A stretch of 64,000 nucleotides of DNA from Escherichia coli (GCA_032372955.1 GCA_032372955.1_4725.1), one strand, 5' to 3'; positions 15,587 through 51,747 are shown, counted from the stretch's first letter. Notes: generated by a model from the sequence alone, not told the origin. A program made the numbers and translations.

Positions 15587-16897
15587 ATGTCATTACTACA
15601 ACGCGTGTATGGTCATGACGAATTAACGATGGAGGCCATCAAGTTTCAGGATGGTTCCTTGTTCAAGGAAATGACCGAGTTCTTCAGAAGCAAACAGGGA
15701 CTGGATAAAAAAGATGTTTTAAACGTTTTCAAGGACGGTCGTTTAACCGAGATGGTTAAACGCTATACGGGGTTGAACATCGAATTCTCGGTCGACGTGA
15801 AAATGGGCCAAATGAATGCCTACGTGTACCCACCGGATATTTCGACAAACAACACAATCCTGGCAGACTATCATCGGTTATGGATGCGTGGTGCTGATGG
15901 TGTTACGCTCCTTAAAAAGATTAAAGATACGCCTGTCGGTTACGTCGATTTAGAAAAAGGTCGTGTTTACGGTATCTTTGAAGAATTGAAGATTCGTTCT
16001 GCCATCACGTATGAACTGCTAACCGCGACAGAACCCTTTCTTCCGGAAGAAAAAGCAGCCATAATGCTGCATGAAATCGGGCACGCATTTACCTTCCTTG
16101 AAACATTGTCGGAAACGGTTCGTGTCGAAGCCTCAATCATGACCGTACAGCGTGAACTGTTGGGAACAACCGATAAGGTAAAACGTATCGAACTGGCGAA
16201 AGCGTTAAACAAAACGCTGGATACTAACGTCGACGTAGACAAAATCAGTGATTCAGACGACGGTAGTGTCTGGTACACGGTTTACGTGTCTAACAGAGCG
16301 ATGCAGTTACGAAACGTAAACAACGCTGGACGATATACCGACGTTGCTTCCGAATTCATGGCTGATCAGTTCGCTACGCGTCATGGTGGTGGGGAGTATC
16401 TCGTTAGCGGGCTTGCTAAAATGTATCGGCTTTATAGCAAAGACTCCGTGAAGTCCAAAACGATGTTCTGGCTCTCCTTCATCATGGATGCTACTATAGC
16501 TTCTATGATGGCGATAGGTTTAGCTTCTGTTGGTGCTATCGGCGTGTTGGTTGTTGTCGCTGTAACCGCGCTTTCTGTTTGGTTAGATCCGACATACAGC
16601 ATTTACGATAACGACATGGAACGATTCCGTAAAATCAAACAAGATTTAATTATACGCTTGAAAGATCGTGATATCCCAAGCGATGTTCGTTCCATGACGC
16701 TGGATGCCATCAAAACAATCGATGAAACGCTGAGTGCGATGAACAATAATCGTACCTTTTCGCAGATGGTTACGCTTATCCTTCGTCCTGGGGTTCGTAA
16801 AGCGGTTAAACAGGAAGAAATTCAGCAAGTCCTTTCTTCTACAATGAACAGCGATCTGTTCAAAACCGCAGCGACTCTTGATTCCATTATCGCCTAA
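15587..16897 (+). CDS. M48-like zinc metallopeptidase with C-terminal transmembrane anchor
   Basis: HEIGH (HExxH) followed by EFMADQFATRHG, matching the HtpX-type E-x-x-A-D-x-x-A-x-x-x-G third-ligand block; C-terminal hydrophobic stretch FWLSFIMDATIASMMAIGLASVGAIGVLVVVAVTALSVWL. Confidence 0.55.
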   Translation: MSLLQRVYGHDELTMEAIKFQDGSLFKEMTEFFRSKQGLDKKDVLNVFKDGRLTEMVKRYTGLNIEFSVDVKMGQMNAYVYPPDISTNNTILADYHRLWMRGADGVTLLKKIKDTPVGYVDLEKGRVYGIFEELKIRSAITYELLTATEPFLPEEKAAIMLHEIGHAFTFLETLSETVRVEASIMTVQRELLGTTDKVKRIELAKALNKTLDTNVDVDKISDSDDGSVWYTVYVSNRAMQLRNVNNAGRYTDVASEFMADQFATRHGGGEYLVSGLAKMYRLYSKDSVKSKTMFWLSFIMDATIASMMAIGLASVGAIGVLVVVAVTALSVWLDPTYSIYDNDMERFRKIKQDLIIRLKDRDIPSDVRSMTLDAIKTIDETLSAMNNNRTFSQMVTLILRPGVRKAVKQEEIQQVLSSTMNSDLFKTAATLDSIIA

Positions 16898-16929: not shown

Positions 16930-17370
16930 ATGAATATTTCTGATTTCGCCGTTCAGCTGAAAGACCTGGTACGTGATTTCCCAGCCGAACAACAGACCCG
17001 TGCGTTAAGTATTGCCGCAGGTTACATCGCCGGTTACAGCATGCCTGTATTCGCTGAAAAAGAAGATCTGACCGCAGATAGCATTTTCGTTCGCGAACAT
17101 CTCCCTAAAATCCGTGAAGGGTTGGATAAGCTTAACAAGGTGCTGGTTATTGGGCTGGCCGATGCGTTAGACGTTGCTCGCTACTTCTGGTGCCTGCGTT
17201 ACCGCATGGTGCATGAGCCGACCGCACCTGAAACCATGCTGTTATTAGCCTCCGCCGTTCGTGACCAGGAAACCGCAGGGCTGCCTGACGTTATCGAAGG
17301 CGTTGACCCGAAACTGGTTGCACAACTTGCAACGGCTTTCGCTAACGCACTGCAAGGAGAGAATGCATGA
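16930..17370 (+). CDS. Hypothetical protein (146 aa)
   Basis: ORF with AAAGGAATTTAAC before the ATG; stop overlaps the next start (ATGA). Confidence 0.5.
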   Translation: MNISDFAVQLKDLVRDFPAEQQTRALSIAAGYIAGYSMPVFAEKEDLTADSIFVREHLPKIREGLDKLNKVLVIGLADALDVARYFWCLRYRMVHEPTAPETMLLLASAVRDQETAGLPDVIEGVDPKLVAQLATAFANALQGENA

Positions 17371-20246: not shown

Positions 20247-23033
20247 ATGAACAAATACCTTAAAGCAGGGTTATCTTCCGCTGAAAATGGTTTATTGGTT
20301 CTTGAGTCATTGACAGAAAATATCAACGCTGTATCACATCCCACGATCCCTAGCAGTGTGGGTCTTGATGAGCTTCTGGCGTTGAAAGAAACGTTACATC
20401 GTGACAAACAGGTATCACGTCAACAACTAGCAATGCTGTCATATTCCCTTCCTGACGCAATGGAAGGTAAGCCGCTGGCATTATGGACCGAGTTACCTTC
20501 AACGACCGGTTTCAATGAAGCCTGCCGTGTTGTCGATAAAGCCATCGCGATTATCGGGGAACAGTTGAGAAACGCATCCGCCACGCAAGTAAAAGATCTT
20601 CTGGAGCAGGAGCTTACGCGTCTTGAAGAAAATGCGTCGTACGTTGACGATTTTACTGCATTGACTCAGGCGCATTCTGAACGTTTTTCTGCCATCCATG
20701 AAACATTGGGTGGTTTGATCGATCATCCAGACGTAAAAGAAGACCTCGCTATCGCTGTACAGAAATACGAAGGTAAGCTCGCACAGCTCTGGTCACCGAT
20801 TGTTGATCTGGTTGCGGTAACGCAAGCTCTGTCAGCGCTTTATGCCGTCGATCGCAAAATCCTTGAGCAAGCACTTGCATTACAGCCGTCTGGCAACGAT
20901 GGTGCGGATGAAGAGTACAACGTAGTTACTGCTGTTCCGTCGACCGATATCAATGTCCTTATGCCGTACTTCGACCAAGCGGGAAATCTCATCCCTACTG
21001 AATCGGTAGCGGCACCGAAAGAATGGGACGGTAAAACACTTCTCACCGTTTTAGGTACCGCGGTTTTCGCATCACGAATCATGCGTGACGTCGTGAACGA
21101 TTACCCAGAAACAGCGGCGTTGGTTAAACAACTGCTAGAACGCGTTGAATCTGCTCAAGCCGATGAAAATCTTGACAACATCGGTTATTTAGCGGTTATC
21201 GCACGTCTGCAAAATGCCCGTATCGTTTACCAGCGCATGTTAGTGCAATGTGTGCGTACCGTACTGACTTACGCTGAAGCTGTTGCTGAGCTTGTTATGT
21301 CGGTATCTGAGACCGCTACTGCTGTCCGTAGTGAAGAGCTTTGGGATAAAACTCAAGAAGAAATCGAAGCGGCTGACGGATACACACGTACCGATCTCGT
21401 GCAGGAAGGGTATGGCATCTATACCGCAGAAAGCGCGTGGGAAACGTTACGGCGGACGATGGAATACACCGTCAACATTCTAAAACGTTTGGTCGATTGG
21501 TTGGTTAAGAGCTGGCGTAATGGAAGTGCGAAAGCGGCGATCCAGCAGGCGGAGGCTAATAACAGTCAGCTTACGCGAGCTAAAGACGCTCTGCTTACCG
21601 AAGGCACGAAGAAACGCTTAGCATCGTTACATACCGTCGGTATTCAGACCATTGCGAAATATGCTGAAGCAGGAACGATCTGGTCGGGAGCGTTCAAAGG
21701 GGTTACCGACAATCTGGGTAACGTTGCGGCATTAATCAGCTCGGAAGTGAAAGAGCTATCGAACGGGCGTGAACTCGATCAGGATAAACTCGCTAAGATT
21801 CGTGAAGGTCTTGCTCTTGCATTCGAGAAAGGTAACTTCAATAAAGTTCTTCTTGGACACGATGGTATCACTATCGATAATCTCGCAAGTGAAATCCATG
21901 ACTACCGTGAAGAATTGAAGGATCAGTTCAAGGAATCCACGAACGAATCTATCGATGTGGATAAACTGATTCGATACAACGACGGTTGCCGTAAATTCCT
22001 GCAAGGACCAGTTACCGATGCACGTAACAAGGTCAGTGGACATGAGTTGGATAATCTGCTTACCATGTTGAACAGCATGATTCGTCAACAAGCCTCTTCG
22101 CCTGAGAATAAAGGTTTAGGGGCGTTGAAGAACGAAATCGTGAACGCACGTGACCTTGCTAAAGCCGCTGTGGATGTTCTCGGTATCGCACAATGGCTGG
22201 AAGTCCGGGCTAAGCGTTACATCAATGCTTTGAGTACAGTTGTCGATAAAGCAAACAGCGAAGCAGCAGCGGTTAGCGGATCGTTGAAACAGGAATCGTT
22301 CGATCTTAACGAAACTGTGCTCTCGTCCACCAATTACGATGTTTGTAGCGTCGCAGCCACGAGTCTCGCGGCAAACAGATTCCGCAACTCGCGTGACGAA
22401 CTTCGTCGTCATTATAACCAAGCCTTGGAGGCTGCGCTTCAAGTCTATAACCGGGCTGTTTATAACCGTGCTGTAATCGGACAACATCTGTTGGGTGTTA
22501 TGCCGCGGTTTACGGGTGTGTTCAGTAACTATCCGTGGACATTAGGCCTTGACCTTCAGGTGTCCAATCCTGTCGCGTTAAATGCGTTCTGTGAAAAGCT
22601 TTCGCGGTCTATCGAGCTCTATGGTGCAGGTACTGCCGACAGCATCACACAGGCGGTTGCTTTGTTAGATTCCACAGAACTCTGTTATGCGGTGGATCCG
22701 AACTATGAAGGCGAATCTGGTAACTCATCAGCTTTAGCAACGCATATGTTCGAATATCGACGTCTGGCAAAAGAAGCGTTGGAACCTCATAGCGACTTTA
22801 CCACTGAAGAACAACGGCGGGGATGGTACGCGACGTTCACGGACAGTTCACCATCATGGGAACCGGATAATACTCTCCAGGTGGTAACGGAAGATGTTGA
22901 TCCTTCGCTGATATGGGCATTCGCGTCTTTGTTCTGTGCTGCGCTGAATGCGTATATCGCATTGAAATACGGTACCGATCTCAAGGTGTACGGTTGGTTC
23001 AGCGAACAGCAGAACAGCAATAACGTAAGATAA
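20247..23033 (+). CDS. Large virion-associated protein (928 aa)
   Basis: Long ORF with ribosome-binding site; contains a W/K-rich amphipathic segment (VNILKRLVDWLVKSWRNG) like the neighbouring family. Confidence 0.5.
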   Translation: MNKYLKAGLSSAENGLLVLESLTENINAVSHPTIPSSVGLDELLALKETLHRDKQVSRQQLAMLSYSLPDAMEGKPLALWTELPSTTGFNEACRVVDKAIAIIGEQLRNASATQVKDLLEQELTRLEENASYVDDFTALTQAHSERFSAIHETLGGLIDHPDVKEDLAIAVQKYEGKLAQLWSPIVDLVAVTQALSALYAVDRKILEQALALQPSGNDGADEEYNVVTAVPSTDINVLMPYFDQAGNLIPTESVAAPKEWDGKTLLTVLGTAVFASRIMRDVVNDYPETAALVKQLLERVESAQADENLDNIGYLAVIARLQNARIVYQRMLVQCVRTVLTYAEAVAELVMSVSETATAVRSEELWDKTQEEIEAADGYTRTDLVQEGYGIYTAESAWETLRRTMEYTVNILKRLVDWLVKSWRNGSAKAAIQQAEANNSQLTRAKDALLTEGTKKRLASLHTVGIQTIAKYAEAGTIWSGAFKGVTDNLGNVAALISSEVKELSNGRELDQDKLAKIREGLALAFEKGNFNKVLLGHDGITIDNLASEIHDYREELKDQFKESTNESIDVDKLIRYNDGCRKFLQGPVTDARNKVSGHELDNLLTMLNSMIRQQASSPENKGLGALKNEIVNARDLAKAAVDVLGIAQWLEVRAKRYINALSTVVDKANSEAAAVSGSLKQESFDLNETVLSSTNYDVCSVAATSLAANRFRNSRDELRRHYNQALEAALQVYNRAVYNRAVIGQHLLGVMPRFTGVFSNYPWTLGLDLQVSNPVALNAFCEKLSRSIELYGAGTADSITQAVALLDSTELCYAVDPNYEGESGNSSALATHMFEYRRLAKEALEPHSDFTTEEQRRGWYATFTDSSPSWEPDNTLQVVTEDVDPSLIWAFASLFCAALNAYIALKYGTDLKVYGWFSEQQNSNNVR

Positions 23034-27332: not shown

Positions 27333-28439
27333 ATGGTAGCATCAGAAATTGCCGACGCTGTTAACGTTGTTGCGTCCGGTATCGCTAAAGTCTACGAAGT
27401 TAATAAACTTATCCAGCCAGGTTCGCTGGTTGAACTCTCACAACCTTCACGCGTTATCGCGCCGTTGATCTTTGAACGTGAGTTGTATTATAGCGACGCA
27501 CGCAATGCGTTAGGCAACTGCATGCGCACCGCTGAAAACATGTATACCGGGTTCTATTTACTGGCGTTGAATACCATCATGCAGGTGGGTAATATCAGTG
27601 TCGATAAAACGCTGGGTCGTGTGAATCCAAACCGTAACGCTAACCTGACGGATAAGGCTATTAAATTAGCGCTGGAAAGTGCGGATAGCAAAAGCCTTGT
27701 TTTCCTTGATGACAAAGGATTCAACCTGCAGGGGAAACAAAAAAATAGCCTCGATGTTGGAGCCAGCGACGCGGCGATCGAACTGCTGAACAAAGATGCG
27801 AACGCGGTCACCGGTAAGTTCTTAACCGTGACGCTGACCGATGGTCAGGCAACGATGAAAATGCCGTTGAACATCAGCATGCGTATCGCAAGTTCCCCAG
27901 CGGAAGTGCTTGCATCTATCTTAGCGATCGGTGGTCCACAGAACACCTGGCGAGCACGTTGGCATCGCATGATGGCGGGTGAGCTGTCTTTCTGGAGCGA
28001 TATGATCCTGCTTAGCGATCTGGTTCGTGAACACAAACGAATCTCACGCATGGATAAAGAGGGTATCCGTAAAGCTGTTAATGCTGCGCGCATCAATGCC
28101 GCAAAAGCTGCAGCGAGCACAAAGATCCCTTCTTCTGGAGCCATCGCCTCCACCTATATCATCTCTAAGGCTAACCAGGAAGCCATCGAGCGTAAGATCG
28201 GACGTCGTTTATCTGACTATACCACACGTCAGAAAGTCATGGCTGAAGCCCTCGCAATGCAGTTGATCATCATCGACGAAGCTGAAGAGATGGTGACCTT
28301 CTATTTCCACAGCTTGGATCAAGGAACCACCGTAAGCTTCAAGCAACTGGAAAAATCCAACAGTTCGTCAACCTCGGGTTCCGATCTTCTGACGATCCTC
28401 CAGGCGCTCCGTACCGGAAACGTCCCACAGATTCGTTAA
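27333..28439 (+). CDS. Hypothetical protein (368 aa)
   Basis: ORF with AAGGATTTCAAT before the ATG; divergent from 26093..27298. Confidence 0.55.
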   Translation: MVASEIADAVNVVASGIAKVYEVNKLIQPGSLVELSQPSRVIAPLIFERELYYSDARNALGNCMRTAENMYTGFYLLALNTIMQVGNISVDKTLGRVNPNRNANLTDKAIKLALESADSKSLVFLDDKGFNLQGKQKNSLDVGASDAAIELLNKDANAVTGKFLTVTLTDGQATMKMPLNISMRIASSPAEVLASILAIGGPQNTWRARWHRMMAGELSFWSDMILLSDLVREHKRISRMDKEGIRKAVNAARINAAKAAASTKIPSSGAIASTYIISKANQEAIERKIGRRLSDYTTRQKVMAEALAMQLIIIDEAEEMVTFYFHSLDQGTTVSFKQLEKSNSSSTSGSDLLTILQALRTGNVPQIR

Positions 28440-28478
28440 TACACGCAACCTGTTTCGAAATAGCATAGGTGCTCACTC

Positions 28479-29381
28479 ATGGCAATCGATTTTAAAGAAT
28501 TCATTCGCGGTTTGAAGCCGCTTTTTAAACGCACCGGTGTTGCTGACGCACTCGAATCAATCCGTGACGAAATCAACAACACCGCGATTCCTTACTACGA
28601 GACATCCGCTTCGCTTCTCCAAAAGGGAGAAAGCGCCTTATGGAAACTTGCTGATAAGGATCTGCACCAGCGTTTAACCCGCGTTCGCTCTGGAAGCTGG
28701 GTAGAAAACGTTCACTTAGCGCTACGTAATGCTGTTGACCTGATTCCGGAAATTGTTAAACGTGTTAACAAAAACCTGGAAATCGATGTTGCTGCTGACG
28801 GCCTAAGTTTCAAAGAAGCCGCTCTGGTACGTCTTGTTGAGTCCCTGGGCTTCTACGTTAGCTACGCTCGTACGCTGCTTCGTGCGACGGTCATCTGCGA
28901 AAGCATGCCAGGTGGTGATAAAGCACTTGGTGAGTTCTTCACCAAAAACGAGATTGCTTACCTGACCGCCAACATGTACGGTTTCGCCATTGCCACCGAA
29001 GTGCTGTGCGGACAGAAACAACAGATCCTTGCTGGGTTGGATAAAATCCCGGATGTTGTGGTTTCTGATGAAGACGGTGTTGGTAATGGCTTATACAACG
29101 CGGGTAATACTGACCCGATGCGTATGGGATCATGGTCCGACACTCAAATGACCAACACGCTTATTTACCGTTATCGCATCTGGCGCAGCGAACGTGAAGA
29201 AGCGTCGTTACAAGCAGCCAAAGAAGAAGCCCAAGCGTTGGAGTATTGGATTTTGTCACTGAAGCAAAAGCAACAGAATGCGGGCAACGATCCAAAAATC
29301 CAGCAGCAGATCGAATATCACGAAGAGCGACTGAAGAAACTTCGTTATGATATTAAACGAAAAGAAGAGGCGGCCGTATGA
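28479..29381 (+). CDS. Hypothetical protein (300 aa)
   Basis: ORF; stop overlaps the next start. Confidence 0.55.
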   Translation: MAIDFKEFIRGLKPLFKRTGVADALESIRDEINNTAIPYYETSASLLQKGESALWKLADKDLHQRLTRVRSGSWVENVHLALRNAVDLIPEIVKRVNKNLEIDVAADGLSFKEAALVRLVESLGFYVSYARTLLRATVICESMPGGDKALGEFFTKNEIAYLTANMYGFAIATEVLCGQKQQILAGLDKIPDVVVSDEDGVGNGLYNAGNTDPMRMGSWSDTQMTNTLIYRYRIWRSEREEASLQAAKEEAQALEYWILSLKQKQQNAGNDPKIQQQIEYHEERLKKLRYDIKRKEEAAV

Positions 29382-29908
29382 ATGCACTTCGTGACGTCCC
29401 TTTAACGTTATACGGTACCGGGTTCTTTGGATTTCCGGTTAACGGTGTAAAACGCCAGGAGAACTACGATCGTGACGTTGTTAGTTTGTATCAGCGTCTG
29501 GTCGACGGTACTCCTCTCGATGACTGGAAATATGAGCGTCAGGTTCTTTCTACCCTTTATCGTTTGATGTACCCCATCACCGATTGGGTGGAAATGAACA
29601 GCCATAACCCAAATCTGAACTTCACCAGTCTGGAGTTTATCCGTGATACACTGCGGTTCATTCACACGGGTAGACGAGACACGAACGTTCAGATTGCGGG
29701 TCAATTGATTGATAACTGGTCGGATCGTCAGTCATTAAGTTCACACCAACGTCTGGAAAGCAGCGGTAAACTTATGAGTTATATCACGTTGTCAGACGAA
29801 GAGATGGTGCGTACTTGGCTCCATTGGGACAATGGCATCCAGGACATCATATGTACTTTGAATGCGGTGTTTGGGCAACCTATGGCACCGGGTTTTAAGG
29901 GCTTTTAA
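29378..29908 (+). CDS. Hypothetical protein (176 aa)
   Basis: ATGA overlap with the upstream gene; an 8-bp hairpin spans its stop codon. Confidence 0.5.
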   Translation: MNALRDVPLTLYGTGFFGFPVNGVKRQENYDRDVVSLYQRLVDGTPLDDWKYERQVLSTLYRLMYPITDWVEMNSHNPNLNFTSLEFIRDTLRFIHTGRRDTNVQIAGQLIDNWSDRQSLSSHQRLESSGKLMSYITLSDEEMVRTWLHWDNGIQDIICTLNAVFGQPMAPGFKGF

Positions 29909-29972
29909 GTGAGCTGACGGTTCACTTAAGCCGCATTAGCTAATGTGCAATTTATTGTAAAGGAAACAAATT

Positions 29973-31295
29973 ATGCCTTCTATTTTTGATCGTCTTGTCG
30001 CAAATCCATCTAACGCACAGCTGGTTCAACTGGCTGCTGAGATCGACCCGGATGCAGCGGCAACCGTTGAAGCAGAACCGGCAGCTGATGCTGCAGCAGC
30101 GGATGAAAACGCTGTAGCTGAACTGACCGAACGTGCTGAAATCGCTGAAGATACCGCAGCTGAAACCGAACTGGCTATCGAAGTTCGTGGTGATATCGAG
30201 CAGGTTGACGCTGTTGTTATCGAAATTGCAAAAGACGACGAAACCGCAGAAGCCATGGATGATGCCATGGATGAACTGACGGAAACCGTTGTCGCAACCG
30301 AAAGCTACCTGAAAGACGGTGGTATGTCTGCACAAACCGCTCAGGAACACATGCGTAATCTGAAACGTCTGTGTGGTACTATCGGTTTCAAAATGCCGGA
30401 AACCATGCCGTCCTTCGAAAGCTTCGGTGGTTCCGCTTCCCGTTACGATGCAACCAACATGATCTTCCTGGAAGAACAAAAATGGTGGCAGAAACTGTGG
30501 GCAACCATCAAGAACTTCCTGAAAACTTCCTGGGAAACCTTCGTGAAGTTCATGGATCGCATCTTCGACGGCGCGACCAAACTGAAAGCACGTGCTGCTA
30601 AACTGAAAGAAATGATCGCCAAGCGTAAAGGCGTTGCTAAAAATACCAAAGTTAAACTGGGTAGCGGCGTTTCTGGCTACATCGGTGGCGACGATCTGGT
30701 TACCGGCGCGACCAAAATCGCTGACACCTTCGAGAAAGCAATGAAGGCTGCTGACGATCGTGCTGATAAATTCGTTGGTACCGTTGTCGCTAAATCTCAC
30801 ACCGAGTACGCTGATAAACTGAACGCTCCGGCGATTGCTGACGTTGCTGGCCCGGCAGGTTGGGGCTTCAAAGCCAACGATGGTAAAGTAACCTGGGAAC
30901 GCTCTGGCGAAGCAAAAGAAGTTGAAGCTACCGTCCTGTCCCTGAACCAGCTGGCTGCTGCGGTTAGCGGTGTTGAAGTACTGGCTGACAAACTGCTGGC
31001 GCTGAAAGGCAACATCGGTAAGAAATCCCAGGGCTTCAAAGACGCTGTTAAATTCGGTGACGATATGGAAGCCGATCTGTCTAAGAAAGGCGAAGTTTCC
31101 GCTCAGGAAAAACAGCGTGTTCAAGCTGTACTGTCTGCACTGAAAGACGCACGTTCCTGCTACGTGAACCCGCAGACTGGTCTGATGAAATACGGTGTTC
31201 AGGCAGGTAACGCTGTCCTGGATGGCGTTGCTAAAATGCTGAAAGAGTACGGCGGCCAGGCGGCTGAGAAACCGGCCGACGCAGCACAGCAGTAA
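29973..31295 (+). CDS. Abundant virion protein, paralog family member 1 (acidic Ala/Glu-rich N-terminal region)
   Basis: Strongly host-optimised codons (CTG, CGT, GGT, AAC, GAA) produce a full-length mirror ORF on the minus strand; N-terminal 100 aa rich in A-x-E motifs; W/K-rich amphipathic segment WWQKLWATIKNFLKTSWETFVKFM. Confidence 0.6.
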   Translation: MPSIFDRLVANPSNAQLVQLAAEIDPDAAATVEAEPAADAAAADENAVAELTERAEIAEDTAAETELAIEVRGDIEQVDAVVIEIAKDDETAEAMDDAMDELTETVVATESYLKDGGMSAQTAQEHMRNLKRLCGTIGFKMPETMPSFESFGGSASRYDATNMIFLEEQKWWQKLWATIKNFLKTSWETFVKFMDRIFDGATKLKARAAKLKEMIAKRKGVAKNTKVKLGSGVSGYIGGDDLVTGATKIADTFEKAMKAADDRADKFVGTVVAKSHTEYADKLNAPAIADVAGPAGWGFKANDGKVTWERSGEAKEVEATVLSLNQLAAAVSGVEVLADKLLALKGNIGKKSQGFKDAVKFGDDMEADLSKKGEVSAQEKQRVQAVLSALKDARSCYVNPQTGLMKYGVQAGNAVLDGVAKMLKEYGGQAAEKPADAAQQ

Positions 31296-31316
31296 TCAGT
31301 TAATAAACTGACATAT

Positions 31317-31360
31317 CCCCCTCTCCCAACCCGTAAGGGAAGGGAGAGGGTTCTATGCCG
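31317..31360 (+). terminator. GC-rich hairpin followed by TTCTATGCCG
   Basis: CCCTCTCCC-aacccgtaagggaa-GGGAGAGGG, then TTCTATGCCG; lies between paralog genes. Confidence 0.5.
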
Positions 31361-31398
31361 CTCAGGTTTATCTTTTGAATCATTACTGGAGACAACAC

Positions 31399-32715
31399 AT
31401 GGTACACATACCGCTATTTGCGACCCAGGGCGATATCAGCCTTGAGGCGTTTGAAAAAGATCCTATTGTTGCTGAGGCGCTTGCTGTGGAGCCTACAGCC
31501 GATGTCATCGATGCCGATGGCGTTGAATTACGTTTAGCGACAATCGACGAACATGAAGATGCACTTGATCGTGCTTTCCCTGCTGTTGCTGCATTACGGG
31601 AAATCAGTTTTGATGTTGCTCCGACTATCGAATCGGCTAACTACAGTGACGTTGCATTAGTTCGTAACGTGCAAGAATCCGCATCGATTGCTCTGGGTCT
31701 ACCCTCCGAAGCATTGCTGACTCCAACCGATCGTGTTGAGGTTGGAGAAGCTTTGGTTGTTGAAGGGTTTAAGGACACCGTTGTAAAAGCCATGAAAAAG
31801 ATCTGGGATATCATCGTTGATATTGCCCTGACCCTGGCAGCAGCCTTCGAGAAGCTTACCCGTCTTGTTTACGACGAGACACGCAATTTTCAGAAAGCCG
31901 TTGCAGACCTCGAACAAATGCCTAAAGGTAAATACGAGGAAAATAAAGAAGTTGCGTTTAAAGCGGAGTGGCGGACACTTTTCCCTAACCGTAACAACGT
32001 TGGTGGCGTAGACACGCTGAAAAGCAACATCGATACCTTCAATCAGATGTTCCTTAAATCAGATGGTTATTCGGTTATTGATGGTTTAGGATTAAACATC
32101 ATCGACTTCCATTTAGATATGGTTGAAAAACTTCCCGTTGATTATCTGTCTTTCTTGCACGCTGTCAAATCGACACTGGAAAATCGCGGTTCCGTGGAAG
32201 GTGCTGACGTTATCACCCCGACGGTTTCCGGAAAACGTATCCGCTACATCAACGGCGCAGTCTTCTTGAAAGAATTCGACGCATCAAAAGACAATATCAT
32301 CGATGCGGTTAAACGTTACCTCGACTTGGATATTGTCGTTGACGATGTTGAATGGGATAACGATCCAGAAACGTACGTCCTACCGACACCTGACGATTTG
32401 CGTAGCGTTCGACAACTGACGTTCGCGAAAGATCTGTTGATGGTAACAAAACGCGGACGCGCTTTCTCTGAGATATTCTCTCGCAATAAAATCCGTACCA
32501 TGGAGCGCATCCAGGAAATCACCATGAAACGCTTCAACGAGCAGAATTTTGATGCGAGCTACCAACAGTACATCGAGATCTATCCTAAGCTCGTTAAGCG
32601 TGCGATTCTGCTTTGCGGTAAAGAGAACCGTATTGAAAACCAATTCGCTTACCAATATCTTCGTGCATTGACCTCATTTATCAACACTCTCGTTAAAGCT
32701 TATACCAAAGGTTAA
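31399..32715 (+). CDS. Virion protein, paralog family member 2
   Basis: VALVRNVQESASIALGL ... VVEGFKDTVVKAMKKIWDIIVDIA collinear with member 3; ATG at 31399 follows GGAGA (track start 31375 is TTG). Confidence 0.6.
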   Translation: MVHIPLFATQGDISLEAFEKDPIVAEALAVEPTADVIDADGVELRLATIDEHEDALDRAFPAVAALREISFDVAPTIESANYSDVALVRNVQESASIALGLPSEALLTPTDRVEVGEALVVEGFKDTVVKAMKKIWDIIVDIALTLAAAFEKLTRLVYDETRNFQKAVADLEQMPKGKYEENKEVAFKAEWRTLFPNRNNVGGVDTLKSNIDTFNQMFLKSDGYSVIDGLGLNIIDFHLDMVEKLPVDYLSFLHAVKSTLENRGSVEGADVITPTVSGKRIRYINGAVFLKEFDASKDNIIDAVKRYLDLDIVVDDVEWDNDPETYVLPTPDDLRSVRQLTFAKDLLMVTKRGRAFSEIFSRNKIRTMERIQEITMKRFNEQNFDASYQQYIEIYPKLVKRAILLCGKENRIENQFAYQYLRALTSFINTLVKAYTKG

Positions 32716-32724
32716 GGAACTAAC

Positions 32725-34014
32725 ATGGCCCGCATCTCTCTTTTTGATAACGTCAATAAAAACGCATTCGAACTCGCTTTGCTGAGCGCCGAAGATCTTC
32801 TTGCGACAATTCCAGCGGAGCAAAATGATCCCAACGCAGAAATCGAAGAGGACGAAGTTGAGTTGGTGATTCGACGCACCGACGAGACGATCGATGAATC
32901 CAGCGAACTGGCTGAAATTGCAGTGCGTACTTCAGCAACGCTGGAAGATACCGCATACATGATCGCACCTACGATCCCTGAAGCACGTGCGAGCGACATC
33001 GCCCTTATCCGTCAGATTGCTTCGACGTCAGCAGCTAACCTGGGGATGTCTGATGAAGACATGTTCCAAGCTGACGATCGTTTGGTGGAAGGGCAAGCTA
33101 TTGTGCTGGAAGGCTTTAAAGAACGCGCCGCGCAAGCGTTATACGCAGTTTGGGTAATCATTGCGAACATGGCTGAACAGTTATGTAAGCTGATTCAGCT
33201 GCTTTTCAAAAACCTTGCGGTAGCGTATAAAAAAATTACCGATGTTGCAACCGCTGTAAATAAAGGCGAGCGTCACATCAAACAACTAAATAAACCGACC
33301 GGGAATATGATTAGCATGTTCCCTAACGCAAAAACGGTTAACGCGTTGGAGATTCGTAAACATATTGAGCAGTTGGCGGCATCCACACAAGCATCCTCTT
33401 TTTTACTACTCCAAACCGACGACATTAACAAGAAAGTTAATAAACTAACTGATTTGACGACACTTGCCGATATTCTGGACGATTATATTTACGCTATCAA
33501 GCCTGCGTTAAAAGGACTCAAAATACCAGAAAGCGGTGGGAAACGTTACGTCGTTAAAGGTCTCGACGCTCTTATGGCTGAGAAAGATACCATTAAGGCC
33601 TGCGCGCTCGTGAAGAATATTCAGATCGAAGTGGAAGAAACCGCGACTGGTAGTATCGAAAACGCGAACATTTTCAATAACGACGACGAATTGAAAGCCG
33701 CACTGACCTCGTATCTTAACGTATTTCGTATTGTTGACCCTGCATATTTCCGCCAGACCGAAAGTTTAACGAGTACTGTCGAACGTACTGCTAAACTAAA
33801 CGGTATGAAAATTAAAACTAAATGGGACGGTATGCTCGACAATCTGCCGGAAGCAGATCGTGAAACCGTTCGTCCTTATATAAGCGCCATCTCAGAAATG
33901 GCGCGCTTGAGCGCGGTATTAGCAGCTAAGATCCTCCGTGTTGCTAACCGTCAATATGCGGATGCTGTATTTGCTGCTGCGAAATACTTCGATGCCGTAA
34001 CCGAAAAAGCATAA
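32725..34014 (+). CDS. Virion protein, paralog family member 3
   Basis: IALIRQIASTSAANLGM ... VLEGFKERAAQALYAVWVIIANMA collinear with members 2 and 4. Confidence 0.6.
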   Translation: MARISLFDNVNKNAFELALLSAEDLLATIPAEQNDPNAEIEEDEVELVIRRTDETIDESSELAEIAVRTSATLEDTAYMIAPTIPEARASDIALIRQIASTSAANLGMSDEDMFQADDRLVEGQAIVLEGFKERAAQALYAVWVIIANMAEQLCKLIQLLFKNLAVAYKKITDVATAVNKGERHIKQLNKPTGNMISMFPNAKTVNALEIRKHIEQLAASTQASSFLLLQTDDINKKVNKLTDLTTLADILDDYIYAIKPALKGLKIPESGGKRYVVKGLDALMAEKDTIKACALVKNIQIEVEETATGSIENANIFNNDDELKAALTSYLNVFRIVDPAYFRQTESLTSTVERTAKLNGMKIKTKWDGMLDNLPEADRETVRPYISAISEMARLSAVLAAKILRVANRQYADAVFAAAKYFDAVTEKA

Positions 34015-34023
34015 CCACCATGT

Positions 34024-34065
34024 CCCTTCCTCCAACCCAACAGGGAAGGAGGAAGGTTTATGGCG
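34024..34065 (+). terminator. GC-rich hairpin followed by TTTATGGCG
   Basis: CCTTCCTCC-aacccaacagggaa-GGAGGAAGG, then TTTATGGCG. Confidence 0.5.
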
Positions 34066-34162
34066 TTGGTATCCGGTTATCTTTTGACTTCTGAATCAAC
34101 GGTTCAGAAGGTAAATGGCGGACATGATCACCCGCCAAGATTTTCCTACGTAGGAGTTCCAA

Positions 34163-35464
34163 ATGGAAAACGTGTTACAACAACCCATGACATCGTTGTT
34201 TCAAGGGATTGATGATGAACCTGTAGAATCGTTCGGTATCGCTGGCAACGTTCTCGATGCCAGTAATATTGAGAATCAGTTTCACTCAATCGACGAAACA
34301 AACACGGTGATGAAAGAAGGTGAACAACACCTTCAAACATTAAATAAACTCAGGCTGGATATTGTCCCAAACATGGCTGAAGTTGAAGAACGCGATATCA
34401 GCACCATCAAACATATCGCATCGACCGCAGCAGCCGGAATGGGAATGGACCCAAACCACATCATCGAGGGCCTGGAAGAGGAAACTTCCAGCGGGATGAG
34501 CTTGAACATGGAAAGTTTTGACAAGACCGCAAAAGAAGCAACCCGAGCATTATGGCTTTACATGAACGAATTGTACCGCTACGCGATCGATATCTGCAAT
34601 CGTTGTTATCGTCGATTCGTTCGTCAGGTGAAGCCGTTATTAAAGAAAGCGGCTGCGTTGAAAACTATTTCCGAATACGATGTTAATGAAGATAACGCAT
34701 TCTGGGAGAACTTTCCTTACAACTGGCGATATCTTCATCCGAAAGGCGGTGCGGTAAACAGTATTGCTGATCTACGGCAAACCGCAGAAAACATCGTAAT
34801 GAACACAGGAATCCTCGCAGCATGGCATCGTCAACTCGATCCGTTATTAATGCAGCTACTAAAAGCACCGTCAGTGGATAACAAAGAAGGTATCGCTGCA
34901 GAAAACGAAGCCTGTTGGGAGAATATTCTCGAGGTCATCAACGATGCGTTATGCGAGAAGCCGTTAAAGCCTACCGGAACAGACGATATCGTCGTTGACG
35001 TACCTGTTGGTGCTTCCTATCTTAAAGTACACAACATCGAAGACGCAACAGGAACGCAATTCAGCGTTGTGTGGGAAGCCGTATCTTTCCAATCGGCAAA
35101 AGATGGATTCCGTTTCTTACCGTTAAACGATGTTATCGACGGAACCAACGCGATCATCAACGCATTAAGTACGTTATGGTCTACGCTACGACAGTTGGAA
35201 TTTAAACGTTGTCTTGAAGCAAGCCTTGCCGACCAGGACGAATGGATTCAACCTTACGAGCGTTTGCTACAACAGATGGACAACAACGATACCGCATCAT
35301 CCGCTATCGTTCAACGTGTGGGTATCGCGCGTAACGTCGTCGGCTTCCAGGCGGTTGCTTTTGCCCGATTCCTGTTAACTGTCTGCGACGTCATCGACGG
35401 TCTTAACGATTATCTTGACGCGCATCTCGAACTTGAGGAAACCAGCAATGCTGCAGACCTATGA
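34163..35464 (+). CDS. Virion protein, paralog family member 4
   Basis: ISTIKHIASTAAAGMGM ... AKEATRALWLYMNELYRYAIDI collinear with members 2 and 3; AGGAG ribosome-binding site. Confidence 0.6.
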   Translation: MENVLQQPMTSLFQGIDDEPVESFGIAGNVLDASNIENQFHSIDETNTVMKEGEQHLQTLNKLRLDIVPNMAEVEERDISTIKHIASTAAAGMGMDPNHIIEGLEEETSSGMSLNMESFDKTAKEATRALWLYMNELYRYAIDICNRCYRRFVRQVKPLLKKAAALKTISEYDVNEDNAFWENFPYNWRYLHPKGGAVNSIADLRQTAENIVMNTGILAAWHRQLDPLLMQLLKAPSVDNKEGIAAENEACWENILEVINDALCEKPLKPTGTDDIVVDVPVGASYLKVHNIEDATGTQFSVVWEAVSFQSAKDGFRFLPLNDVIDGTNAIINALSTLWSTLRQLEFKRCLEASLADQDEWIQPYERLLQQMDNNDTASSAIVQRVGIARNVVGFQAVAFARFLLTVCDVIDGLNDYLDAHLELEETSNAADL

Positions 35465-36554
35465 TGGACAGATTCAAGCGTTAAGCTTGTTAAAAACATT
35501 ACCTGTGCCAGAGACAGCAACGCAACGACAAATTCACCAGCTTATTTATCAGCAGGCGGGCGGTATGCTGCCGACCAGTTATACCACAGAAAGTGCTGAT
35601 CTCCTCACGATGGAATCGTACAATCAGCTTGCGATGAAAATTATCAAAGCTATCATCGATGCGATCTGGACAACGTTGCGGAACATTACTGCGTTTATCG
35701 CCAGGTTTATCGATCGTAGTCGCGCACTACAGCTCGAACTCAGCAATATCCGTCGTCACTACACAAAAGCCGTTGGTCGTAAACCCATCGCGCAAAGCTT
35801 CGAAGCTTCGACGACGCTGGCCCCACACTTACGGTATGGGAACAGTTTTGGGTTCGATTTCACAACCGGGAATACGCTATACAAACAGAATTTAGCAATC
35901 GCTGAATATCTCTTGTCTTCGTCGTTCCGTGATGATTTCAAGCAGTTCGCTAATACGTTAGATAGAGCGCTCGACATTATCTTAAAACAGACGGATACCG
36001 CATTAATCGATGTGATTAACCGTGATGCGTACACGTTATTGCATAAAGTCTACAGTACGCTGAACGAATCGAGACTTGTCAATGTAACGTTACTGGGCAA
36101 CCGTACGCTACGACTCGATCAGGTTACCGCCTCAGGTTCCGGATCAATTCAACAGTCCCTCGCCATTCAATCTGCACGGTTTGAAGTCCAGGATGTACCG
36201 TCCATTGAACGGGATATGGTGGTTACAACGCCAACATTAGAACAAGTTGGTGTGCTACTCGAGTCTGTAAATACGGGTGTTGATTTGCTGGTTAGTTACC
36301 ATCGTAAAAAGTACGCCAACGAGTTACTCGAAATCGCAGGGAATCTACAAGCAAAACTTAACGACGTTTATCGTCAACAAGGTCAGTTGTCAGTTGCTAC
36401 TGCTTCTGATGATGCTATGGTAGCCCTTTCTCGATACCTTACAGCGTATACCGCGTGGATCAAGGTGCCGCTTGTGGGCTATGCCGAGTTCTTTACGAAT
36501 TCAACAGCGGCTATGCTTGATGTCTCTCGCGAGGCGCTGAAATATTACTTTTAA
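35448..36554 (+). CDS. Virion protein, probable divergent paralog family member 5
   Basis: AMKIIKAIIDAIWTTLRNITAFIARF amphipathic block; ATG at 35448 follows GAGGAA and overlaps the upstream stop by 17 bp. Confidence 0.5.
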   Translation: MLQTYDGQIQALSLLKTLPVPETATQRQIHQLIYQQAGGMLPTSYTTESADLLTMESYNQLAMKIIKAIIDAIWTTLRNITAFIARFIDRSRALQLELSNIRRHYTKAVGRKPIAQSFEASTTLAPHLRYGNSFGFDFTTGNTLYKQNLAIAEYLLSSSFRDDFKQFANTLDRALDIILKQTDTALIDVINRDAYTLLHKVYSTLNESRLVNVTLLGNRTLRLDQVTASGSGSIQQSLAIQSARFEVQDVPSIERDMVVTTPTLEQVGVLLESVNTGVDLLVSYHRKKYANELLEIAGNLQAKLNDVYRQQGQLSVATASDDAMVALSRYLTAYTAWIKVPLVGYAEFFTNSTAAMLDVSREALKYYF

Positions 36555-36569
36555 GAGGAATAACGCTTT

Positions 36570-39500
36570 ATGAAAAAATCGTTAGCTGATCTGATGCGTA
36601 AGTCGCATCTTAACCTGGAAAGCGGCGATACACCTATCGAAGTCAAAGCAACGCTTTCTACCGATAAAGAAGAGCAAGTGATCGCATTACCTACAGCGGC
36701 ACGGCCAGACAGCATCGAAGCGACGATCGAATCAGATACGCTCGAGGAAGGGGCTACCGTTGATGACGCCGTTCGTGTGATTCGTAGCACGGATGAGAAC
36801 GGTGAGGATGTCGTACGTGCTGTTATTGTGACCCGTCCTATTGATGGTAGTTTACGAATTCGTTTCACACCGAGCAGCGGTGGTGTGACCATGGAAGACG
36901 GTAACGATGTTCAACCGTTCGTTCTGATCGCGGTACCGACCGCACCTGGCGAAGAGCCGAAGAACCCATATCCGGCAAACGCGCCAACCGAAACACCGGC
37001 ACCGAAAGTGACCAATGATCCGACCGTTAACGCTGACCGTGACAACCTGAAGAACAAGATTCAGGATGCGGCTAACGCCATCGACCCGACCAACCCAGCA
37101 CAAATCGAACAGGCAGCACAACCTGCGGAAACCACCGAAGGTGTTAAAGGTAACGTCGTCGAACCGGAAAAAGCAGAACCTGTTGCTGAAACAGCGGCTG
37201 CGGCAGCCGAGGTGACGCCAGAAACCAAAACAACGGAAGAACCCATCAAAGTCACCGTGATTAAACGTGTCGTGGAGAAAGTAGAAAAGGTTGAAGATAA
37301 CGTCGCTGACGAACAACCTGTTGTCGACGCTAATGACGGTAATACCGGTGAGCAGAAAGCCGAAGCAGTTGCCCAGGAAACAGAACTGCAAGGCGATGTT
37401 GAGGTCGATAACGCTGACGAAACACCCACCGAGGACAGCACCACCGAACCTGCGTCCGAAGAACCTGCTAACACCGACGCTGACGCTGGTACCACCGACG
37501 ACACAACCACCAAGGGTGATGAAAACACCAAAGGTGACGATGATGAAGACGACGAAAACGAAGAAGATGAAGATCTGAAACAAGAGTCGTTCGAAATTCA
37601 TCAAGAGCTGGAAGCCCGTGGTGTATTAGATGTTCCTGTTGTTGAACAGCGCGCATCGGTTATTCTCGGTGAAGGTGAAACAGATGTAACCGTCATTGAA
37701 ACAGAACAACCGTACATTCCTGGCACCATGGTGGTACGTCGTCTTGATGGGGATAAGAGTGTTATTGTTCGCCGTACTCGTTACGCTGAACGCTTTAACG
37801 CTGATGGTCAGGGTGAAGCGATCGCCATTGTCGACCCTACTCTGCAAGGCGAACTGAAAATGGAATTCCGTCCGGCTGAAGGTCCGATGGAAAGCTTCGA
37901 GATTCGTCCTGAAATCAAAGACGAATACATCATGGAATCGTACAAACAGCTTGATATCGCACTGAATAGCGATCTCAATCTGGAAGACGGGGAAAAGCAA
38001 CCAGGTCGCTTTAAACAGATTCTGAAATCGGTTTACGAAGCGGTCGCGAAGTTCTTAAAAGCCCTCGTGGCACGTTTGAAAAATCTCTTTGGTGTTAATA
38101 AGAAAAAAATCGAAGGGAAGGCCAACAAGCTGACCAAAGAACAACGCACAGCACCGGTGATGAAACTGCTTCCTCCGCCGAGTAATACTTCGGATGAAAA
38201 GAAAGTCAACGTCGAATGGAACAAACTCGATACGCTGCTTGCGAACGACGCTAAATCCGTCGATAAAATCGTAAACGCGGTAAAAGACAGCAAACGTATC
38301 GCTGAAGCATCCCGTAAGTTCTTCGACCAGCTGAAGGATCTTAAAGAAGGCGAAAGTCCAAACGCTGATACGGACATGCTGACAGCAACAACAATGTCTG
38401 GCGTGGCCGCGTTCGGACATAGCGCCGACGCCGCTTTAGACGGTATTCGTAAGTTCCGTGACGAACTTAGCGCCATGAAACAGCAGGATGATGCTGTACC
38501 GTCTAACGTTAGCGTTGATATGCTGATCGATGCGTCAACGAAACTGTTTAACGAAGACCTTCTGAAAGCAGCTACACAACTTCAGGAGACAGCTGAACGG
38601 CTAATCCGTGACCTCGATAAGAGCGGTAGCGATTATGATGTTGGCTACATCGTTAAACGCACGCGCACACTGATGAACTTTGCGACAACAGCATGCACCG
38701 TCTACGGATTCGCTGCGAAAGAACTCGGCGATGTTACCGTTCGTATACTCACCGCTGTTGCAGCGGCTGATAACGGCGATCTCAAACAGGAAGAGTACCA
38801 GGATGTTGCTGGTGAAAACGATCCGGTTGTAACCGTCGAGACATTGGAAGGCGATGCTGGTACTCGTGTTGTTGCTGAGGCGGAAATCGTTGACGATCCT
38901 GCGGTGGTGGAATTCGTTGAGCGTGCTGAAGAAGCGCAGCGAAATCTGGCTATCGGTCGCCATGCGGTGAGCGCGGTGGAAGGTATTCTGGTAGCGGCAC
39001 GCGAGATCGGTCCTGATAACTTCCAGGGTAACGTCGAAGCTACCGAAATTGCGATGGAAGGATTCATGGATACCGTTAAGAGTGCGGTCAACCGTATCGG
39101 TAACTGGATTGAAACCAACCACCGTTACTATACCGCCGCTACGGCTCCATGGGATAAGCTGTTCGCCGAAACGCAGCAAGCGCTGGCCAAAGCGCGTCGC
39201 GGTAACCCAGCAGCGGAACGGATTATTCTGAAACGTTTCATCCGTCATCTTACCATCGGTGGTGAACCTGTTACCGATGTGAAGAAGCTCATCGCTGCGT
39301 TGGGTGAAATCAAAATGCTTGGTAACATGACGCGTGAATTAATCGTTGCTATCGATCGTGAACTCAGCGAAGTGCGGAAGAGCAACCAGTCCGAAACATC
39401 CGCTGGATCGGTTGTTGGTCTGAAGCGTATTCCTATTCAGAAATGGGATAAGCTTATGGTCGCTACCGTACAGCCGTGGAAAGACAGCGATCGTAAAGGC

Positions 39501-39956
39501 GTTGGGTCTAAAGCGTATCTTGGTGAAACGCACATCGTGAAGGTGAGCGCGACCTATGCGACAACGCGTAACAACCCGAACGAGGAAGCAGCGAAACTGA
39601 TGCAGTGGATCTACACCGGTATCAATCGCCAGTTTACGGTTTCTGACGACCTCACCAGTGAGGAATTACCGGTAGCCACTATCAGTGAACTGGAGGCAGT
39701 GCTGCGTGCGGCTCGTGAAGCGCATGAAGCTTGGCTTATTGCTGACAACGCCATGCAGACCCTGCGTTCAATCGATAAATTCCTGGATAGCGAACTCAAC
39801 GTTGAGAACGATGTTAATAATGTCGTTAACTACGGTATTGTTCTCGGCCTGGAAGATTGGTTGTTCCATCCGGCATTGACGTTATGGCAACAGTTCAATA
39901 AACCGATGCAAGCGGTGCTTTTCCTTATCAAAGCCCATTGCGGTGCCTACAAGTAA
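36570..39956 (+). CDS. Large protein (1128 aa) with ~200-aa acidic low-complexity region
   Basis: Long ORF with AAGAGGAATAAC before the ATG; acidic T/E/D/P/A-rich tract around aa 130-335 ending in DDDEDDENEEDED; amphipathic block QILKSVYEAVAKFLKALVARLKNLFG. Confidence 0.6.
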   Translation: MKKSLADLMRKSHLNLESGDTPIEVKATLSTDKEEQVIALPTAARPDSIEATIESDTLEEGATVDDAVRVIRSTDENGEDVVRAVIVTRPIDGSLRIRFTPSSGGVTMEDGNDVQPFVLIAVPTAPGEEPKNPYPANAPTETPAPKVTNDPTVNADRDNLKNKIQDAANAIDPTNPAQIEQAAQPAETTEGVKGNVVEPEKAEPVAETAAAAAEVTPETKTTEEPIKVTVIKRVVEKVEKVEDNVADEQPVVDANDGNTGEQKAEAVAQETELQGDVEVDNADETPTEDSTTEPASEEPANTDADAGTTDDTTTKGDENTKGDDDEDDENEEDEDLKQESFEIHQELEARGVLDVPVVEQRASVILGEGETDVTVIETEQPYIPGTMVVRRLDGDKSVIVRRTRYAERFNADGQGEAIAIVDPTLQGELKMEFRPAEGPMESFEIRPEIKDEYIMESYKQLDIALNSDLNLEDGEKQPGRFKQILKSVYEAVAKFLKALVARLKNLFGVNKKKIEGKANKLTKEQRTAPVMKLLPPPSNTSDEKKVNVEWNKLDTLLANDAKSVDKIVNAVKDSKRIAEASRKFFDQLKDLKEGESPNADTDMLTATTMSGVAAFGHSADAALDGIRKFRDELSAMKQQDDAVPSNVSVDMLIDASTKLFNEDLLKAATQLQETAERLIRDLDKSGSDYDVGYIVKRTRTLMNFATTACTVYGFAAKELGDVTVRILTAVAAADNGDLKQEEYQDVAGENDPVVTVETLEGDAGTRVVAEAEIVDDPAVVEFVERAEEAQRNLAIGRHAVSAVEGILVAAREIGPDNFQGNVEATEIAMEGFMDTVKSAVNRIGNWIETNHRYYTAATAPWDKLFAETQQALAKARRGNPAAERIILKRFIRHLTIGGEPVTDVKKLIAALGEIKMLGNMTRELIVAIDRELSEVRKSNQSETSAGSVVGLKRIPIQKWDKLMVATVQPWKDSDRKGVGSKAYLGETHIVKVSATYATTRNNPNEEAAKLMQWIYTGINRQFTVSDDLTSEELPVATISELEAVLRAAREAHEAWLIADNAMQTLRSIDKFLDSELNVENDVNNVVNYGIVLGLEDWLFHPALTLWQQFNKPMQAVLFLIKAHCGAYK

Positions 39957-49277: not shown

Positions 49278-49426
49278 CGTAGGGAAAAGTTATGCGGCAT
49301 TTTTAGTGTTGTATCACGACCTCAATAACGGTAAGTGTTTACTGATACTATAGTGGCGCATGCACGCGTGTACGCTATGGTCTATCGACCGACTTATATA
49401 AGTTAATTCTGTAAAGGATACTTTCA

Positions 49427-51649: not shown

Positions 51650-51747
51650 ACTACCGTAGCTGCTTCGTTGGACGATATTCTTGACGACAACGTTGCGGAT
51701 GGTTTCATTGCACCGGACATTCATCCGGCACCGTGATACATAAGTCA

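Follow-up and report, generated by a model that had tools for sequence, protein, structure and literature searches.

The window analysed here is a stretch of 64,000 nucleotides from an Escherichia coli assembly (GCA_032372955.1), and its positions 29,973–36,554 contain five consecutive open reading frames (ORFs), all on one strand, to which we refer as members 1–5 (table 1). At the nucleotide level, this region shares 96.1% identity with vB_EcoM_Goslar (MK327938), an Escherichia jumbo phage that forms a nucleus and whose orthologous proteins gp58, gp57, gp56, gp55 and gp54 are labelled merely as hypothetical in its GenBank record. Together with the gene for a 1128-residue protein that follows downstream (g1128), the five genes very probably constitute the array for internal head proteins (‘inner body’ or ejection proteins) in a chimallivirus of the Goslar type, i.e. 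six paralogs belonging to the Pfam family PF12699 (phiKZ_IP, phiKZ-like phage internal head proteins).

Member 1 matches PF12699 over nearly its full length (residues 84–419) with 73.4 bits (E = 2.6e-20), which is above the gathering score of 27 bits, and it also matches two PHROG families of internal head proteins (phrog_5750 and phrog_2497). The C-terminal 328 residues of g1128 (801–1128), when scanned alone, likewise pass 27 bits (27.8 bits, E = 2e-6). Member 2 (22.2 bits, E = 9.5e-5) and member 5 (20.5 bits, E = 3e-4) stay below the gathering score; many orthologs of member 2 carry a precomputed PF12699 match, and member 5 aligns with residues 64–370 on model positions 89–384, which is the same colinear pattern as that of phiKZ gp96 (residues 62–367 on model positions 89–386, 31.8 bits). 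Neither member 3 nor member 4 has a Pfam match of its own; both are tied to PF12699 by their paralogy with member 2, by the protein P0124 and by hhalign. Thus, BLASTP in a small local database yields E-values of 4e-18 for member 2 versus 3 and of 5e-9 and 4e-8 for member 4 versus 2 and 3, respectively; P0124, one of the 10 representatives retrieved with a member 2–4 profile among 1.84 billion proteins (the distant ones matching mostly the N-terminal half), itself passes the PF12699 threshold with 28.6 bits; and the extended member 2–4 family aligns with 31 SPN3US-type PF12699 proteins at an hhalign probability of 93% (E = 3e-7). The five-gene paralog family postulated by the first, sequence-only reading of the region is thus directly apparent for members 2–4, whose quoted N-terminal motifs (D[IV]A.[IV]R... 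and VVEGFKD, VLEGFKE and NMESFDK) do align as written, whereas neither BLASTP nor phmmer links members 1 and 5 to the remaining ones in pairwise comparison, and these two find their place by Pfam and profile comparisons, which for member 5 include an hhalign match to the member 2–4 family at the amphipathic motif described below (E = 0.0026).

The reach of sequence comparison is short for this family. A homology search with the member 2–4 alignment is dominated by near-identical Goslar-like orthologs, and at 90% identity, the homologs of member 5 found among 5.8 billion proteins fall into just two clusters, i.e. both families appear to be extremely narrow in the databases searched. Pairwise methods are useless for the PF12699 array proteins; tblastn with member 1 against 50,697 phage records retrieved only Goslar plus one weak match in a Pseudomonas phage; phmmer with the six proteins against phiKZ gp92–97 and SPN3US gp53/54 gave no matches, even with a 13-sequence database. 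At the level of structure, an AlphaFold2 (AF2) model of member 1 that was built on an alignment with SPN3US-type homologs (predicted local distance difference test score, pLDDT, of 61) found 22 matches in BFVD by Foldseek at E ≤ 1e-3, with template-modelling scores of up to 0.63, and all 22 are internal head or virion proteins of jumbo phages; nothing significant was found in the PDB (best E = 0.046). The helical-bundle fold of PF12699 was assessed here on this model only, a single-sequence AF2 model of member 4 (pLDDT 38) being unusable; a published AlphaFold comparison predicts that gp54–57 share their fold with PF12699 proteins (10.64898/2026.04.21.720040).

Gene order leads to the same assignment. 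In the window, the order is g997(−), g412(−), g368, g300, g176, members 1–5 with g1128, g127, g530 and g438; in phiKZ, it is gp87(−), gp88(−), gp89, gp90, gp91, gp92–97, gp98 and gp99. The flanks of the array are orthologous to phiKZ gp89, gp90, gp91, gp98 and gp99 at E-values of 1e-14 to 1e-36 (phmmer E-values for the upstream gp89, gp90 and gp91 orthologs are 4.8e-36, 4.3e-15 and 6.3e-14, respectively), but unlike these flanking orthologs, the array genes themselves have diverged from phiKZ past pairwise detection. SPN3US gp48–gp54 form an equivalent block with two paralogs only (gp53–54). The locus is thus in exact synteny with phiKZ gp87–gp99 (the array proper corresponding to gp92–97), and its gene order also agrees with that of SPN3US gp48–gp54. 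In Goslar, gp60 and gp61, encoded just upstream of the array, are injected and gp59 belongs to the vertex-binding complex.

The orthologs in Goslar have been studied directly. According to a 2026 preprint (10.64898/2026.04.21.720040), which assigns PF12699 to gp53 and gp58, all of the proteins gp53–gp58 are detected in purified virions by liquid chromatography–tandem mass spectrometry, with approximately 2150 copies of gp58, 330 of gp53, 70 of gp54, 60 of gp56 and 50 each of gp55 and gp57 per virion. Absence from virions, the outcome that the sequence-only reading had named as speaking against it, is therefore excluded by way of these 96–99% identical proteins. Moreover, gp58 fused to superfolder green fluorescent protein (gp58-sfGFP) enters the virion, is injected and then stays at the early-infection vesicle (Armbruster et al., PMC10541120), and published evidence of ejection covers this fusion for Goslar and gp92, 93, 95 and 97 for phiKZ (10.1101/2024.03.24.586471). 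Paralog families of variable size (2–7 members) and their proteolysis had been described earlier for phiKZ and SPN3US (PMC5694885; 10.1101/2024.03.24.586471). Overall, the proposal that these genes encode internal head proteins is borne out by the Pfam and PHROG matches of member 1, the BFVD matches, synteny and the presence of the Goslar orthologs in virions. It is correct yet already known, because near-identical Goslar proteins have been reported in virions, and what was flagged is no new kind of element but a family known already, here carried by a close relative of the phage in which it was studied directly.

Table 1. Features of the array and its surroundings (coordinates of the window; an arrow marks the bond following the glutamate; aa, amino acids).
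Feature	Position	Strand	Description
Member 1	29973..31295	+	440 aa; Goslar gp58 ortholog, 98.0% identical; acidic Ala/Glu-rich residues 1–~150, then PF12699 helical domain
Candidate cleavage sites, member 1	AQE125↓H 30339–30347; SFE149↓S 30411–30419	+	upstream of junction helix
Member 1 junction and amphipathic helix	30450..30602	+	residues 160–210: ATNMIFLEEQKWWQKLWATIKNFLKTSWETFVKFMDRIF...
Member 2	31399..32715	+	438 aa from ATG; ORF reaches back to TTG at 31375; Goslar gp57 ortholog, 97.5%
Member 2 junction and helix	31738–31893	+	VVE122↓GFK
Member 3	32725..34014	+	429 aa; Goslar gp56 ortholog, 98.8%
Member 3 junction and helix	33085–33240	+	VLE129↓GFK
GC-rich hairpin	34116..34137	.	gap between members 3 and 4; annotated transcription terminator in Goslar
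Member 4	34163..35464	+	433 aa; Goslar gp55 ortholog, 96.1%
Member 4 junction and helix	34487–34642	+	NME117↓SFDK
Member 5	35448..36554	+	368 aa from ATG; ORF reaches back to TTG at 35415; Goslar gp54 ortholog, 97.3%
Member 5 junction and helix	35589–35744	+	TME56↓SYNQ
g1128 (1128 aa)	36570..39956	+	Goslar gp53 ortholog; sixth family member; long acidic low-complexity N-terminal part
g1128 PF12699 domain	38970–39953	+	residues ~801–1128; begins at IAME830↓GF
g932 (932 aa)	17367..20165	+	Goslar gp65 ortholog; junction and helix LVQE119↓GFVAKVSKLFVDGAKKVWELIKRIW
g928 (928 aa)	20247..23033	+	Goslar gp64 ortholog; internal motif at residues ~381–424
Upstream conserved genes	27333..29908	+	orthologs of phiKZ gp89, gp90, gp91 = Goslar gp61, gp60, gp59

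For the six proteins, we infer an architecture that starts with a short N-terminal leader and continues with an N-terminal region that is variable and in most cases acidic; next come a conserved junction, in which hydrophobic-x-hydrophobic-Glu precedes Gly or Ser (or Glu, in member 1), and a helical bundle of approximately 300 residues, with a W/K/I-rich segment as its first helix. This segment had been flagged as amphipathic in all five members, and it is: its hydrophobic moment of 0.53–0.76 (0.62 in member 1) falls into the 98th–100th percentile of 22-mers from neighbouring proteins, it forms the helical domain's first helix, and a conserved Glu precedes it in members 1–5 (in FLE, VVE, VLE, NME and TME, respectively). 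The same Glu-anchored pattern—two hydrophobic positions and Glu, after which Gly or Ser stands in most cases (but Glu or Asp in member 1 and in phiKZ gp93/gp94), and then a long amphipathic helix—is common to members 1–5, their distant relatives P0124–P0129, SPN3US gp53/gp54 and phiKZ gp93/gp94. In the AF2 model of member 1, a coil (residues 137–153), which contains SFE149↓S, is followed by a 72-residue helix (residues 154–225). The claimed recurrence of the motif in three larger neighbours is supported for g1128 (IAMEGFMDTVKSAVNRIGNWI; independent E-value, iE, of 1e-3 with a hidden Markov model, HMM, of the motif) and for g932 (LVQEGFVAKVSKLFVDGAKKVWELIKRIW; LVQE↓GF... WELIKRIW; motif-HMM iE of 0.013, hhalign E = 0.008), and more weakly for g928, where LVQEGYG..TAE395↓SAWETLRR..ILKRLVDWLVKSW (residues 381–424) gives no motif-HMM match and is found by hhalign alone, with E = 0.006 against the SPN3US-type PF12699 family. 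With respect to the N-terminal regions, which were said to be acidic and rich in Ala and Glu, the net charge over the first 120 residues is indeed −18 to −27 in members 1–4, but it is +4 in member 5, whose N-terminus is short and non-acidic, and the N-terminal region of member 4 is not Ala-rich.

The next question is whether the junction also marks a site of maturation by a prohead protease of the phiKZ type (MEROPS S80), for which cleavage C-terminal to S/A/G-x-E is expected. In SPN3US, cleavage of gp53/gp54 has been mapped to AQE125↓GWKETLKDLFER (GWKETL) and ARE137↓SLWDDIK (PMC10052503), and these cuts fall exactly where the homologous amphipathic helix begins. The flagged segment is therefore predicted to be the N-terminal helix of the mature protein, because the Glu aligned in SPN3US is the mapped maturation site. 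In an alignment of member 1 with the 31 SPN3US-type PF12699 homologs (32 sequences), E125 and E149–S150 of member 1 are invariant columns, which carry the SPN3US-type A-x-E↓S sites. Furthermore, residues 1–157 are missing from the major capsid protein (MCP) of Goslar, GCE150 and SEE153 being situated just upstream of this point, and peptides of the MCP propeptide are absent from the mass spectrometry list of Goslar, as far as the available part of that list goes; an active Glu-specific prohead protease in Goslar is thus likely. We regard processing of member 1 as likely, and N-terminal processing seems plausible for the Goslar lineage.

Several observations, however, weigh against an inner body made of proteins that are trimmed at such sites. 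The N-terminal regions had been described as full of A-x-E tripeptides, but [SAG]-x-E is no more frequent there than in shuffles that preserve composition (16 observed versus 17.2 expected in the pooled N-terminal regions, P = 0.69), with a single copy in the N-terminal region of member 4 and none in that of member 5; this abundance is an effect of composition and no evidence of protease sites, because the counts match those of shuffled sequences. The P3 residue of the junction Glu in members 2–5 is V, V, N and T, respectively, rather than S, A or G, and cryo-electron microscopy of Goslar revealed no inner-body density, be it in micrographs, in C1 or in symmetry-expanded maps (10.64898/2026.04.21.720040). 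In addition, there are peptide data from Goslar virions, which stem from that part of the published table that lists peptides starting with A to EL; the peptides predicted to be diagnostic have G, S, H, L, Q, V or Y as their first residue, i.e. lie outside this part, and sequences that would span the predicted junction Glu are VEVGEALVVEGFK and LPETMPSFESFGGSASR. Among the peptides of this part are three from the N-terminal region of gp58 (residues 38–54, 55–72 and 115–128, the last one spanning AQE125), one from gp55 (residues 52–62), N-terminal coverage of gp53 (residues 43–69) and peptides spanning both gp53 junctions, and its semi-tryptic ends follow F, T or A but in no case Glu. Thus, most or all of the PF12699 proteins might be packaged with their N-terminal region retained, which in this lineage would then work in the mature protein, e.g. 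as a charge partner of DNA-condensing cations or of the basic helical domain; that ejection-protein processing differs among giant phages (PMC5694885) is in line with such a possibility, which we consider the less likely one. Here, it matters that the N-terminal peptides of gp58 have areas of 5e3–1e4 as compared with 1.08e7 for the whole protein, a level in keeping with remnants or with a minor share of copies left uncut, and that three gp57 tryptic peptides from residues 21–89 and one gp56 peptide were looked for in the same part of the table and were absent, with later peptides of these proteins being present. SPN3US gp53, which is certainly cleaved, still leaves propeptide peptides in heads, i.e. 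it produces the same peptide pattern (PMC10052503), and in phiKZ, gp93 is cut at SLE13↓S, with residues 14–84 staying on the capsid wall and further cleavage separating them from the helical domain. The Goslar N-terminal peptides are therefore compatible with cleavage, because SPN3US gp53 and phiKZ gp93 also leave N-terminal remnants; conservation of the SPN3US-type Glu sites in member 1 likewise argues against retention.

A related issue is whether these proteins act mainly inside the capsid, as an assembly core or scaffold or as a ‘glue’ that lines its wall, and not as effectors after ejection. The fibres of phiKZ by which gp93 residues 14–84 and gp162N connect hexamers along the inner wall would fit such a structural role, and so would an unassigned helical-bundle density beside the Goslar vertex complex that is said to resemble the PF12699 fold, the occurrence of the same junction motif and helical fold in the gp86/gp65 vertex proteins, and the instability of SPN3US heads that lack gp53/gp54 (PMC5694885). 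Yet gp58 and several phiKZ paralogs exit the capsid and remain present at the early-infection vesicle and the nucleus (PMC10541120; 10.1101/2024.03.24.586471), and a predominantly structural function therefore strikes us as a minority option, with the proviso that structural and ejected roles are not mutually exclusive. Still to be weighed is whether the family might comprise just three genes, with members 1 and 5 being unrelated and sharing nothing but a chance amphipathic helix. The missing BLASTP and phmmer similarity of these two members to the rest and the hhalign E-values of only ~0.001–0.03 obtained with shallow profiles might suggest so, but member 1 has a strong full-length PF12699 match, member 5 is colinear with the same model exactly as phiKZ gp96 is, the helix stands in the same register in all alignments, and published AlphaFold comparisons report a common fold (10.64898/2026.04.21.720040), which renders a three-gene family highly improbable.

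If N-terminal processing does occur, these proteins may operate as follows. The N-terminal region would bring the protein into the prohead, where part of it may stay on the inner capsid wall, as suggested by homology to phiKZ gp93 and SPN3US gp53/gp54. The prohead protease would then cut after Glu at or slightly upstream of the junction, with SFE149↓S and AQE125↓H as the best candidates in member 1, and thereby free the basic helical domain, which would sit with the packaged DNA and exit through the tail at infection. For gp58, co-injection with the DNA and a subsequent stay with the early-infection vesicle are documented (PMC10541120). A more far-reaching and rather improbable scenario is that the junction (hydrophobic-x-hydrophobic-Glu followed by Gly/Ser-aromatic) and the W/K helix represent one maturation module of the ejected PF12699 proteins and the fixed gp86/gp65/gp64 vertex-type proteins, which would thus form a single superfamily; proteases of the Goslar type would have to accept V, N or T at P3, the cut would expose the helix as the new N-terminus, and once ejected, this helix might bind lipid and help to build or anchor the early-infection vesicle.

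Within the array, the starts given for members 2 and 5 are the internal ATGs of the Goslar annotation, and member 5 overlaps member 4 by 17 nucleotides. No other intergenic gap of the array is as sizeable as that between members 3 and 4, in which the hairpin lies; because this hairpin is annotated as a terminator in Goslar, there may be two transcription units in the array. In a scan of the region, neither promoters nor terminator-like sites were more numerous than expected from shuffles. Long antisense ORFs are found opposite member 1 (29952–31124, minus strand, 390 aa) and opposite the MCP gene (49424–51724, minus strand, 766 aa), which are most likely stop-free frames against highly expressed genes and not genes themselves. 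In the middle of g1128 (residues ~441–520, nucleotides 37890–38130), there is a second junction-like stretch, GPMESFEIR..YIMESYKQL..FKQILKSVYEAVAKFLKALVARLKNLF, which may be a degenerate second helical domain; hhalign yields only E = 0.025 for it, and a Pfam scan of g1128 residues 441–790 and of the N-termini of g932 and g928 gave no significant match.

The vertex-type neighbours deserve a separate look. Goslar gp65 is a protein of the vertex-binding complex at the capsid's inner surface and a homolog of phiKZ gp86; the 932-aa protein reaches no Pfam threshold, and in phiKZ gp86, for which a cut close to the beginning of the modelled part has been reported, ISQE116↓ precedes a W/K helix and a sub-threshold PF12699 match extends over residues 25–150. 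PDB entry 36za contains 55 copies of an 801-residue chain that is identical in range to g932 residues 134–932 (window positions 17766–20165) and begins 15 residues past the Glu of the LVQE↓GF junction; its label, ‘Inner-peripheral baseplate spoke gp32’, is at odds with the gp65 identity. Goslar gp64 is a virion protein of ~110 copies that has no assigned place, and g928 shares only 76.6% protein identity with it, at a locus where the neighbours reach 96–100%; short divergent patches also occur in g932 (residues ~230–300) and in a 436-aa gene (15587–16897, residues ~280–330). Going by these identities, the g928 area resembles a hot-spot of local diversification, or of mosaicism, within a virion protein. 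On a wider scale, near-identical gp57 orthologs (P0006, P0019, P0034, P0053, P0057, P0097 and others) are found on contigs of 230–250 kb in assemblies of Salmonella, E. coli, Shigella and Enterobacter isolates, and Goslar-like phages would thus seem to accompany many of the isolates that are sequenced, be it in a carrier state or as contamination.

In nucleus-forming jumbo phages, each virion contains thousands of copies of PF12699 proteins, which enter the cell along with the genome; what they do is still described as a key problem that awaits a solution in the life cycle of chimalliviruses, and the role of those in Goslar has been termed an unsolved mystery (10.64898/2026.04.21.720040). What the present analysis adds are predictions of maturation sites, the flagged segment as the predicted mature N-terminus and a junction in common with the vertex-binding protein family.

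In comparison with known systems, the array most directly recalls phiKZ gp92–gp97, with which it shares the Pfam family, the slot between the gp91 and gp98 orthologs and a succession of five genes for ~370–550 aa, the fifth one short and without an acidic N-terminus, followed by one much larger gene; member 5 is the positional and architectural counterpart of phiKZ gp96, and g1128 that of gp97. Common to both are also the acidic N-terminal region, the Glu junction (ISLE156↓ and ISQE214↓ in phiKZ) and the amphipathic helix as well as the virion-borne and injected state, known here through the Goslar orthologs and, for injection, through gp58. The differences are that pairwise similarity is undetectable, that phiKZ has several members at 100–200 copies whereas the Goslar type has a single dominant one (gp58, ~2000), that phiKZ has an inner body but none is seen as density in Goslar, and that the junction P3 is S in phiKZ but V, N or T in the window proteins. 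SPN3US gp53/gp54 (paralog family A) resemble the array in PF12699 membership, synteny and a high copy number like that of gp58, and member 1 aligns with them lengthwise and keeps the invariant propeptide Glu columns, with the mature SPN3US N-termini corresponding to the flagged W/K-rich helix; however, SPN3US has two paralogs only, its cleavage is experimentally mapped, and the first 15 residues, which are identical in both paralogs (MANFVKSKLARESVE), are not found in the window proteins. By contrast, phiKZ gp86 and Goslar gp65 are a fixed part of the capsid vertex, are present in 55 copies, are not ejected and have their own Pfam family (PF25617). Finally, the internal proteins IPI–IPIII of phage T4 offer a functional analogy, with an N-terminal packaging signal, a prohead protease cut after Glu and ejection with the DNA, but they have no relationship in sequence or fold, their leaders comprise 10–19 residues and their cleavage motif is L/I-x-E.

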